Source of the DNA: a phage
Strand: one strand, 5' to 3'
Assembly: GCA_014913405.1 (NCBI GenBank)
Contig: GCA_014913405.1_3931.1
Length of the DNA: 64,000 nucleotides
Shown here: one piece after another, positions 48,034 to 48,922 of the stretch
Layout of the letters: every line of letters begins with the position of its first letter
How positions within the stretch are numbered: the stretch's first letter is position 1
Program-made: the position numbers and the translations under genes
The notes under the pieces: generated by a model
Told to the model about the DNA's origin: nothing
The model's input: the letters and a program-made list of their open reading frames with translations, nothing else
Databases searched by the model: none

Positions 48034-48061
48034 TGACATTGAGATGTGACTACTTTATAGT
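48034..48061 (+). promoter_or_regulatory. sigma70-like promoter, TTGACA-16-TATAGT, inside the tRNA cluster
   Basis: -35 TTGACA at 48034-48039, -10 TATAGT at 48056-48061. Confidence 0.45.
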
Positions 48062-48263
48062 AACCTTAGTTTTCGTTGCGTAGCGTCTATTTTGCAAATT
48101 TAAAATAAATGCAAACGACAATGTTTTTCTGGCAGTAGCTTGATAGGCTAAACACCAGTGAGGTCTTCCAATCCCTCATCAAAGAATTTGGCGTACTCGC
48201 CCACGGTATGATTAATAAGGTGGGCATCTTTAAGGGCTTTCTAAGAGAGTCTTTAAAGATAAT

Positions 48264-48340
48264 GCACCCTTAGTTCAATTGGATAGAGCAACGGTCTTCT
48301 AAATCGTTAGTTACAGGTTCGAATCCTGTAGGGTGTACCA
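48264..48340 (+). tRNA. tRNA-Arg (anticodon TCT)
   Basis: anticodon loop CTTCTAA, T-loop GGTTCGAATCC. Confidence 0.6.
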
Positions 48341-48482
48341 AATAGTTAGCAGATTACTTAGACGGCCTTAGCGGGTCTTCCTGTAGGGAGGTGGTCTGTA
48401 TCTCATGTTTTCCAGAACATGTAAATAATCTGAGAAGAAGCTTGACAGTGTTGAGATAACAGGGTAAGCTTCGAATTATAAT

Positions 48483-48565
48483 ATGGGACGATGTTAAGAC
48501 TCTAAGGCATGAGCAACGGCCTCCAAAACCGTTTCAAAGGGGTTCAACTCCTCCGTCCCATGCCA
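48483..48565 (+). tRNA. tRNA-Trp (anticodon CCA), enlarged D region
   Basis: acceptor ATGGGAC/GTCCCAT, anticodon loop CTCCAAA, T-loop GGTTCAACTCC; D region about 7 nt longer than canonical. Confidence 0.45.
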
Positions 48566-48578
48566 AAGTCTTATTAGG

Positions 48579-48666
48579 GGTAGGTAGCGGCTAATGGTAG
48601 CCAAACTGTCTTGAAAACAGTTGCCACTGTAGAGATACGGTGAGGGTTCGACTCCTTTACTTACCG
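48579..48666 (+). tRNA. tRNA-Ser (anticodon TGA)
   Basis: long variable arm, anticodon arm ACTGT-CTTGAAA-ACAGT, T-loop GGTTCGACTCC; no CCA encoded. Confidence 0.6.
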
Positions 48667-48823
48667 CCTAATAAGATTTACTCCGTCCATGCTTGTTCGC
48701 ATTGTCGGTTTATCCCTCGTGTATTGTCGTACACTGTCAAAGCACCTAGTAGGTGTCACGGAGAAGAGATAATATCAAGCTCTCCAAAGGTTCTAGTCAC
48801 CGGATTAAACAAGACTATGCAAA

Positions 48824-48843
48824 GACCTATTTAGGTCTTTTTA
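48824..48843 (+). terminator. rho-independent terminator inside the tRNA cluster
   Basis: AGACC-TATTTA-GGTCT followed by TTTTT. Confidence 0.5.
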
Positions 48844-48922
48844 GAGGGCTTCTAAGGTTATTAGTCGCTTGTTGTGGAACCTTGTTGCTTAGGTTCTTAG
48901 GAGTTCTCTAAAAAGATTTAAT

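Follow-up and report, generated by a model that had tools for sequence, protein, structure and literature searches.

Two long gaps between the transfer RNA (tRNA) genes of a phage seem to encode small RNAs of their own. The DNA analysed here, called the window below, is a stretch of 64,000 nucleotides (nt) (contig GCA_014913405.1_3931.1 of NCBI GenBank assembly GCA_014913405.1). Gap 1 (48033-48263) very probably specifies a functional RNA derived from transfer-messenger RNA (tmRNA, or SsrA); judged by its sequence, it is the message half of a tmRNA without the tRNA half, closest in appearance to the coding piece of permuted (two-piece) tmRNAs. The best joint explanation, to which we give a probability of about 0.5, is that gap 1 is a truncated-tmRNA template for a peptide tag and that gap 2 (48669-48922) provides a second RNA, specific to the genus. 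A preliminary description of the window had proposed that both gaps give small non-coding RNAs co-transcribed with the tRNAs. This generic interpretation is partly supported: comparative evidence argues for small RNAs among the tRNAs, whereas "non-coding" does not fit gap 1, which holds a conserved tag frame, and gap 1 seems to have a promoter of its own rather than being merely co-transcribed.

The tag frame of gap 1 consists of ten codons, for a degron-like peptide, followed by two stops (Table 1). When the first ten relatives were aligned, they were found to share this frame from an invariant GCA after AUAAAU, with exactly ten codons to the stop. The peptides encoded by relatives (ANDNTFLAVA, ANDDVVLMAA, ANEEMYLAVA, ANDDQFLAVA, ANDNQYLAVA and ANDAQFLAVA) can be compared with the E. 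coli tmRNA tag, ANDENYALAA, encoded from GCAAACGACGAAAAC... A pattern scan of viral contigs yielded 26 tag variants of the form AN[DE]xxxL[AM][VA]A in more than 120 loci. To avoid the circularity of a tag-based pattern, the family was resampled with the sequence of a downstream pseudoknot (pseudoknot B, see below) as an independent anchor, giving 125 instances. The original tag pattern is present in 107 of them, and all other complete copies keep a ten-codon tag and a stop; departures from the pattern include AKDDQFLAVA, ANDDLMLQAA, a GCC for GCA accompanied by a compensating change in the hairpin, and UAG as the stop. The resume codon is ACA in a single instance. Among the pairs of tag haplotypes (39 in total) differing by one base, 16 are synonymous and 9 non-synonymous, while 23% of possible changes are synonymous, although these pairs are not independent of each other. 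No in-frame start codon lies upstream of the tag in the window, where a UAG is found ten codons back. Position -4 is always A, with U at -5 and A at -6 as the rule (ACA and GUA variants exist), and positions -6 to -4 correspond to A84-U85-A86 of E. coli tmRNA, A86 being important for frame choice (PMC2481249). An overlapping frame starting with AUG (MQTTMFFWQ*) was considered and rejected, as it has only 5-9 codons, varies in sequence and lacks its AUG in T5-like copies. From these comparisons, the tag frame is under coding-type constraint and appears to evolve like translated sequence.

The frame is followed by a fold that is conserved as well. The predicted gap 1 RNA has a minimum free energy of -58.8 kcal/mol (z = -4.27). 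An alignment of 36 cluster representatives was tested for a hairpin containing the stop codons and two H-type pseudoknots, A and B. Pairing holds in 92.6% of the alignment cells, as opposed to 29-44% when partners are slid by 1-3 columns; both sides have changed in 14 of the 25 pairs (96 cells), and the observed covariation score was reached by none of 500 shuffles. Helix 1, the outer stem of the stop-codon hairpin, is paired in 100% of cells, with double changes from GC to AU in 14 sequences. Helices 3 and 4, which form pseudoknot A, are 96.7% and 95.1% paired with three doubly changed pairs each, and the Rfam beta_tmRNA alignment reaches through this pseudoknot, taking in the same helix. For pseudoknot B, helix 5 is 97.8% paired and helix 6 is 79.6% paired, with double changes in four pairs; in the window row, helix 6 is aligned in a different register. 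Compensated changes across the family include UGAGG/CCUCA to GCAAGG/CCUUGU and CGGGG/CCCCG, CGCAC/GUGUG to CGUAC/GUAUG and CGCAG/CUGUG, and a loop-to-downstream pairing that shifts from CCGA/UCGG to CCAA/UUGG and CCAG/CUGG. The GCCCAC/GUGGGC hairpin mentioned in the preliminary description is real, and proves to be stem 2 of pseudoknot B.

What comes after pseudoknot B differs between copies. In the window it is a 17-bp closing hairpin, and other phages have analogous long stems at this place. In embedded copies (lambdoid, N4-like and Vi01-like), the strand 5' of the GUUUUCG motif found near the start of the element pairs with the strand 3' of pseudoknot B to form a ring-closing helix, which covaries (CUCUUUCC/GGUAAGAG versus CUCAAACAG/CUGUUUGGG). 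In promoter-driven copies, that of the window included, the 3' strand folds into a local hairpin instead.

Several searches relate this element to tmRNA. The Rfam scan suggested in the preliminary description returned nothing but tRNAs at gathering scores, while the sub-threshold matches at the gap 1 tag all belong to tmRNA families (RF00023, 15.7 bits; RF04321, permuted tmRNA, 29.2 bits). Other members of the phage family obtain Rfam tmRNA scores of up to 33.7 bits, and also match RF01850 and RF01849. A covariance model made from the phage copies only (R1, the 36 cluster representatives) gives the window 127.9 bits (E = 2.9e-28; 48099-48235), a match by construction as the window is in the seed; loci outside the seed (the P1-like L210, L211 and L213-L218) score 75.9-150 bits. 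R1 also finds nt 78-195 of E. coli ssrA (22.5 bits, E = 0.003) and the true tmRNA carried by viral contigs L053 and L141 (32.6 bits, E = 1e-5).

That tmRNA (309-788 in L053, a 36.8-kb metagenomic viral contig), the nearest relative of gap 1 that is complete, is a permuted two-piece gene detected by ARAGORN at default settings. In L053 an acceptor piece (...GCGGGUUCGAUUCCCGCCAGCUCCACCA) is followed by a 175-nt spacer and a coding piece that begins with GGGGCUGACAAGGUUUCGACAGGGCGA and in which AAUAAAU directly precedes GCAAACGAUAAC... Its tag is ANDNAFLMAA, and its AAUAAAU-GCAAACGAU context is the same as in the enterobacterial phage elements. The only other tmRNA calls made by default ARAGORN among the 218 loci examined are E. 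coli ssrA itself and a "tmRNA*" in L022/L138, which we rejected as a 749-nt composite stretching across three real tRNAs. The tmRNA obtained with relaxed thresholds was likewise rejected: it has the right tag, and its tRNA domains are borrowed from neighbouring true tRNAs.

GUUUUCG occupies the position of the D-loop analogue of tmRNA. It is present in all but one of 38 aligned family clusters (the exception reads UUUUUCG, and the permuted tmRNA in the set has GGUUUCGAC), its counterparts being GGAUUCGAC in E. coli and GGUUUCGAC in the permuted tmRNA of L053. As GUUUUCG lines up with both, the phage elements look like coding pieces of permuted tmRNAs minus the acceptor strand. With tmRNA they have in common this motif, a GCA resume codon with AUA at -6 to -4, a ten-codon tag of the AND...AA type, stops within a hairpin, H-type pseudoknots after it and, in embedded copies, a ring-closing helix. 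They differ from it in lacking an acceptor stem, a G3-U70 pair, a T arm and a CCA end, in that no more than two pseudoknots follow the tag and pseudoknot 1 is not conserved, and in being phage-borne, often with their own promoter or in a late operon. Having lost its acceptor stem, T arm and CCA end, the gap 1 RNA would not itself be chargeable with alanine.

Phage T4 provides a comparison of another kind, as its tRNA cluster encodes stable non-tRNA RNAs (species 1 and 2, rnaC/rnaD). These are also small stable RNAs among phage tRNA genes, matured from the same precursors; they are not known to have a tag frame or tmRNA-like pseudoknots. The phage tmRNAs reported in surveys are restricted to mycobacteriophages (Bxz1 group) and Bacillus phage G, plus a form in mycobacteriophage DS6A limited to the tRNA-like domain, and one-ended tmRNA copies were discarded as pseudogenes (PMC4131195, PMC11915505). 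The Bxz1-group and phage G tmRNAs differ from the gap 1 family in being full, canonical and detected by ARAGORN. The DS6A form is closer, being a phage-borne derivative which shows that a phage can retain one half of a tmRNA, although it retains the tRNA-like half and no tag, and the gap 1 family the message half.

The transcription of gap 1 would start from a sigma-70-type promoter. This promoter, reported in the preliminary description at 48034-48061 with a 16-nt spacer, is upheld with corrected coordinates (it starts at 48033, and the spacer is 17 nt). It scores 11/12, the top match within 46000-52500. Promoter-like sites in this region are as numerous as expected by chance (15 found, 14.5 expected from shuffled sequence), so the hexamers alone prove little and the support for the promoter is comparative: in 11 of the 38 family clusters, from other phage groups, the element has its own TTGACA/TTTACA-17-TAxxxT ending 6-12 nt before GUUUUCG. 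The RNA would begin near 48067, as placed from the -10 box, and end at 48263 if RNase P cleaves at tRNA-Arg(UCU) (48264-48340). Neither ARAGORN nor Rfam finds a tRNA in 48062-48263, and the only open reading frames (ORFs) touching it are one of 46 amino acids (aa) on the minus strand (48087-48227) and one of 30 aa on the plus strand, whose tail reaches in as far as 48083, in agreement with the earlier remark that some 200 nt ahead of tRNA-Arg contain no tRNA and no credible ORF. Gap 1 is 99-100% identical among Felixounaviruses, above its neighbours, and 90-96% identical in more distant Ounavirinae, in which the other gaps are about 80% identical.

The element is not confined to these phages. 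In a sensitive BLAST search, 48062-48263 matches 629 phage records, in which it is nearly always unannotated; many unrelated groups match only over 48102-48226, with 70-82% identity. The groups with these shorter matches are Vi01-like Ackermannviridae, N4-like Schitoviridae, T5-sized Klebsiella phages, 46-kb siphoviruses, a lambdoid Enterobacter phage and Erwinia Kolesnikvirus. Copies in T1-like, T5-like, Erwinia and Felix-like phages have their own promoter, ending 6-12 nt before GUUUUCG, while in lambdoid prophages the element lies directly downstream of the Q antiterminator gene, in the gap ahead of the lysis genes. Complete E. coli genomes contain it in 740 places (150 chromosomal and 590 plasmid), none annotated as RNA. 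The one plasmid place examined in context is in the P1-like pCREC-629_2 (L210 1200-1440), where an unannotated element with the tag ANDDLMMVAA follows a terminator, between dmt and tRNA-Asn/Thr. The pattern occurs in only 6 of 185,579 species-representative genomes, all Enterobacterales (Rosenbergiella, Pantoea, Rouxiella and Pseudocitrobacter). A full-text literature search for phage tmRNA-like or message-domain RNAs, or for tmRNA in Felixounavirus papers, returned only citations of ARAGORN, and within the limits of the literature searched the family is apparently undescribed. Hundreds of phage, prophage and plasmid records leave its loci without annotation or wrongly give them hypothetical proteins, and the usual tools (default ARAGORN and Rfam at gathering scores) fail to detect it. 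The family occurs in such well-studied types as P1-like phage-plasmids and relatives of lambda, T1, T5, N4 and Felix O1.

Gap 2 is of a different nature. It begins with a hypervariable spacer, of which relatives carry at least three unrelated versions; the version in the window folds into a weak hairpin (z = -2.1). The element following it is in large part invariant in all 28 distinct relatives (48743-48770, 48774-48784, 48787-48801, 48811-48824 and 48832-48845, that is, all but 21 positions of 48743-48845), even in lineages whose flanks are only about 80% identical, and is confined to Felixounavirus-like phages (254 records). The absence of a tRNA from 48667-48922 and the implausibility of the 64-aa ORF (48640-48834), both pointed out previously, are borne out: this ORF has its start within tRNA-Ser, and in 17 of the 28 relatives only 13-51 aa of it are left. 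As the ORF is broken while the DNA is invariant, the constraint is not on a protein, and the match of the ORF to phrog_36337 probably reflects the same mis-annotated ORFs in relatives. The terminator placed at 48824-48843 in the preliminary description is retained as a terminator-like hairpin at 48821-48842 (an 8-bp stem with 3 G-C pairs, then 5 U's, not listed by a simple terminator scan). The segment does not end there, since a 26-bp hairpin follows, its pairing being kept through G-U pairs and compensated changes in loci L019-L024. As this hairpin overlaps the 3' arm of the terminator, the two structures are mutually exclusive. The long-range pairing CUCCGU...ACGGAG (CUCCGUCC/GUCACGGAG) claimed earlier is possible in the window and is not conserved, its 5' arm lying in a 45-nt stretch that is replaced in relatives; it is best read as chance. 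Gap 2 would then release a genus-specific RNA of about 100-130 nt from the tRNA precursor, ending at the terminator hairpin.

Table 1. Positions, in the window, of the features of gaps 1 and 2
Feature	Position	Strand	Details and basis
Sigma-70-type promoter	48033..48061	+	TTGACA 48033-48038, 17-nt spacer, TATAGT 48056-48061
Predicted tmRNA-like RNA	48067..48263	+	folding, family model R1, genus conservation
GUUUUCG motif	48069..48075	+	at the position of the tmRNA D-loop analogue
Resume context AUAAAU	48105..48110	+	sequence
Tag frame	48111..48140	+	GCA AAC GAC AAU GUU UUU CUG GCA GUA GCU = ANDNVFLAVA; sequence; relaxed ARAGORN agrees
Tag stops UGA UAG	48141..48146	+	sequence
Hairpin with tag end and stops, like tmRNA helix 5	48129..48158	+	outer stem CUGG/CCAG; inner 48136-48138 with 48148-48150
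Pseudoknot A, at the position of tmRNA pseudoknot 2	48159..48191	+	stem 1 48159-48163 with 48174-48178; loop 48168-48171 with 48188-48191
Pseudoknot B	48192..48225	+	stem 1 48192-48196 with 48206-48210; stem 2 GCCCAC 48199-48204 with GUGGGC 48220-48225; loop GAUUAAUAA
17-bp closing hairpin	48226..48260	+	ends 3 nt before tRNA-Arg(UCU)
Hypervariable spacer after tRNA-Ser	48669..48715	+	holds the CUCCGU arm
Conserved non-coding element	48716..48842	+	small hairpins and terminator-like hairpin
Terminator-like hairpin	48821..48842	+	AAAGACCU-AUUU-AGGUCUUU and U's; stem conserved, loop varies
26-bp hairpin	48831..48921	+	48831-48856 with 48896-48921; z = -5.96; abuts tRNA-Leu (48923)

How could a message half function? 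We tentatively propose, at somewhat less than even odds, that the tag of the gap 1 RNA is read in trans-translation. The sigma-70 promoter would drive an RNA of about 200 nt whose 3' end is made by RNase P as it cuts out tRNA-Arg, and rescued ribosomes would read the tag during trans-translation, the tRNA-like function being supplied in trans by the host SmpB-tmRNA or by another tRNA-like RNA. A phage-specified tag (...LAVA or ...LMAA) would thereby be added in place of the host ...ALAA. This model accounts for a tag that has no initiation signal yet evolves like a peptide, as ribosomes reading it would have to enter by the trans-translation route. That phages of the Felix O1-, T1-, T5-, N4-, Vi01-, lambda- and P1-like types all reprogram the rescue of host ribosomes with a tRNA-less tag template loaded in trans is a wider proposition, and on balance an unlikely one.

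A number of observations weigh against the template model, besides the non-independence of the tag haplotype pairs. To our knowledge, there is no route into the ribosome for an RNA without a tRNA-like domain. Default ARAGORN finds no tmRNA in the window, and the Rfam gathering threshold of 47 is reached neither there (15.7 for RF00023 and 29.2 for RF04321) nor by the best member of the family (33.7). The Rfam tmRNA models align only by their middle parts (model positions 56-294 for RF00023), never by their terminal parts. A conserved equivalent of pseudoknot 1 was not found by eye, the upstream region being variable in length and sequence. The missing tRNA half was not found either: in 38 loci there is no consistent partner combining a 7-mer complementary to the leader with an NCCA acceptor end, the matches in single loci being kilobases away and non-recurring. 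The leader can form 6 of 7 pairs with the 3' half of tRNA-Arg in the window; this candidate was rejected, as the 5' strand involved belongs to the -10 box and Erwinia phage Tian does not conserve these pairs. Nor is there a fitting orphan T arm, those of the tRNA cluster (47563, in a permuted tRNA-like RNA, and 48542, in a tRNA-Trp-like sequence) belonging to other elements and the remaining matches to the T-arm pattern (GGUUCRANYCC) in the window lying far from the cluster. As for the second RNA of the joint reading, the folding z of the conserved element in gap 2 is only -1.7 and its invariance allows no covariation test, so that conservation would be the sole evidence for it.

The main rival of the template model is a decoy or inhibitor, which we consider rather unlikely. 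The gap 1 RNA would be an undecoded mimic soaking up a factor that binds the message part of tmRNA, for instance SmpB on the ribosome, S1, RNase R or a defence sensor containing an SmpB-like domain, or would pair through GUUUUCG with CGAAAAC in the host tmRNA tag frame; either way, host trans-translation would be damped or redirected. Every feature needed for charging is missing from the RNA, as would suit a decoy. The mirror-image truncation, the DS6A tmRNA reduced to its tRNA-like domain, is reported to inhibit tmRNA (PMC4131195, PMC11915505), and SmpB-like domains occur in predicted RNA-targeting defence systems (PMC11090510). Furthermore, UAGUUUUCGU (48067-48076) is perfectly complementary to ACGAAAACUA, nt 97-106 of E. 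coli ssrA (L212), within the host tag frame. However, this 10-nt complementarity is equalled by 95 of 2000 shuffles (4.8%) and is retained only as a lead, and GUUUUCG is equally explained as a homologue of the tmRNA D-loop analogue. The tag is constrained at the level of its amino acids and is always free of frameshifts and premature stops, neither of which a pure decoy would need.

The other explanations account for less of the evidence. Gap 1 could be a processing or regulatory spacer, its promoter re-initiating transcription of the tRNAs and its leader and hairpins guiding RNase P, RNase E or RNase III or stabilising the precursor. tRNA-Arg does come directly after the gap 1 RNA, and each of the three large gaps of the cluster closes with a long hairpin 3-6 nt ahead of a tRNA (47636-47779, 48226-48260 and 48831-48921), but N4-like and lambdoid phages have this core too, in examined loci of about 3 kb where no tRNA was detected, and a spacer leaves the tag frame and two covarying pseudoknots unexplained, which makes this improbable. 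We consider it quite improbable, too, that the gaps are relics, left by the decay of tRNAs and a permuted tmRNA gene and without present function, even if a complete permuted tmRNA with a nearly identical resume and tag region does exist on a viral contig and one-ended tmRNA copies were dismissed as pseudogenes in surveys (PMC4131195). The core is more conserved than the flanking DNA, its helices show compensatory changes, its frame is intact in all complete copies, promoters were acquired independently and the element is spread over at least seven phage groups. The possibility of degraded tRNAs, raised in the preliminary description as what would refute its proposal, is countered in the same manner: gap 1 is conserved, covaries and has relatives in many phage groups, and the core of gap 2 is invariant. 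Finally, it is most improbable that the gaps are there for small proteins, namely the 46-aa minus-strand ORF and the 64-aa ORF, both annotated as hypothetical proteins in wV8 and the latter matching phrog_36337. The TP1 RefSeq record has no coding sequence in either gap, the 46-aa ORF is antisense to covarying RNA helices, and the 64-aa ORF has the start within tRNA-Ser and the truncations over invariant DNA described above.

tmRNA is defined by tRNA and mRNA functions joined in one ribonucleoprotein. If the template model is true, stalled proteins would receive a tag chosen by the phage, with a fate unlike that of the host ...ALAA degron, and trans-translation would have its first natural example in which the tRNA and mRNA functions reside on unlinked RNAs, separately encoded by host and virus. 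A selected and widespread phage family with the mRNA part only, and with a tag that evolves and seems to be decoded, would mean either that ribosome rescue may accept a separate template or that phages may manipulate rescue with a mimic of the message half. Either reading would link phage infection, the rescue of stalled ribosomes and proteolysis.

Other RNA-like elements are found near some members of the family. Salmonella phage Vi01 (L035 726-3095) has more than 2.3 kb without an annotated gene, containing the tmRNA-like element together with T-arm-like and hairpin elements. In L142, L051, L082, L038, L148 and L151, repeated cassettes lie beside the tmRNA-like element, bounded by conserved, covarying strands (AACAGGUAAGAGCAUUG ... 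CAGUGCUCUUUCCGUUGUGGUGAAUG) that resemble the tmRNA acceptor strands GGGGCUG/CAGCUCC; some of them enclose a T arm and a D-like hairpin, forming a tRNA-like structure with an extended, closed acceptor stem.

The region 46500-52000 of the window is 95-97% identical to Felixounavirus genomes (wV8, typing phage 1 or TP1, and AN17P8), and 347 phage records match it. ARAGORN finds 26 plus-strand tRNA genes in it, between 46624 and 51835. wV8 and TP1 have this cluster too in their RefSeq annotations, where it is flanked by genes for an "RNA-binding protein" and the large terminase.

Upstream of the cluster, the window has a gene for a 471-aa protein (45044-46459, plus strand), assigned to phrog_850 ("RNA-binding protein"), with the Pfam domains DUF2828 and DUF7788, not TROVE. 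A sequence search of this protein against PDB gave no match. Its predicted structure (predicted local distance difference test score, pLDDT, of 87) has as its top 11 PDB fold matches nothing but Ro60/TROVE proteins, over the full length and with TM-scores of up to 0.66, and the protein is therefore predicted to have a full-length Ro60 fold (TROVE ring and vWA). Members of its family are common among phages, and tRNA genes are neighbours of distant ones (29% identity) as well. About 1 kb downstream on the same strand, 47503-47634 is predicted to adopt a circularly permuted tRNA-like fold, in which a terminal stem (AGACCGUU/AACGGUCU) encloses, in this order, an anticodon/V-like hairpin, a T arm, a closed acceptor-like hairpin of 7 bp and a D arm. 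The acceptor-like hairpin exists in three covarying versions, one of which reads ACCCUUC-G-CCA-AACA-GAAGGGU (...G-CCA is encoded in L021/L022), the T and D arms being invariant apart from single-base variants.

This arm order is that of YrlA, in which V lies upstream of T and a closed acceptor-like stem-loop separates the T stem-loop from the D stem-loop; one mark of bacterial Y RNAs of this kind is a gene for a Ro60 orthologue no more than 4 kb away on their strand (PMC4201824), and the gene for the Ro60-fold protein is in just such a position. The YrlA family of Rfam (RF02553) does not match 47503-47634 in a 321-nt search at E values up to 10, and a GNCGAA(N)G motif was not seen by eye near its 5' end. 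Gaps 1 and 2 differ from YrlA and Y RNAs in having no tRNA-like module, although the putative gap 2 RNA could be a ligand of the Ro60-like protein. The tRNA cluster of Felix O1 appears to be a dense locus of non-coding RNAs beside a Ro60-fold protein.

Further candidates are scattered through the cluster. Just after the permuted tRNA-like RNA, 47636-47779 (plus strand) forms a 22-bp, 95% complementary stem around 100 nt (z = -6.2), with GGUCUGG before it and tRNA-Lys just after, and may be a hairpin for processing or another Y-RNA-like RNA. A repeated motif, CAAAUUUACAGAAGACCGUUUACAGCAA, is found in several tRNA spacers (46785-46818, 46952-46985, 47416-47435, 47495-47528 and also in the 49360s), one copy supplying the 5' side of the terminal stem in the permuted tRNA-like RNA. 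The 96-nt spacer at 49330-49425 (plus strand) folds into a single long imperfect hairpin (z = -4.0) and is 96-98% identical even in distant Ounavirinae, matching the conservation of tRNAs. The sequence at 48483-48565 (plus strand) resembles tRNA-Trp(CCA); its D loop has 16 nt, its anticodon stem contains a C-A mismatch and its encoded end is GCCA. It is missed by ARAGORN and by Rfam (tRNA-Sec model, 23 bits), and is annotated in wV8 as a pseudo "tRNA-OTHER"; the 142 nt ahead of it (48341-48482) have a folding z of -2.8.

The cluster also appears as a hot spot of gene exchange (L001 2523-2927; L002, L003, L004, L006, L017, L018, L021, L022 and L024). In wV8, an HNH endonuclease gene is inserted between the Trp-like tRNA and tRNA-Ser. 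Differences at the position of tRNA-Leu(UAG) were noted in L004, L006 and L021; in some relatives this tRNA is broken after GGGAGAUUGAC by foreign sequence, and elsewhere it is swapped for another tRNA with the same anticodon.

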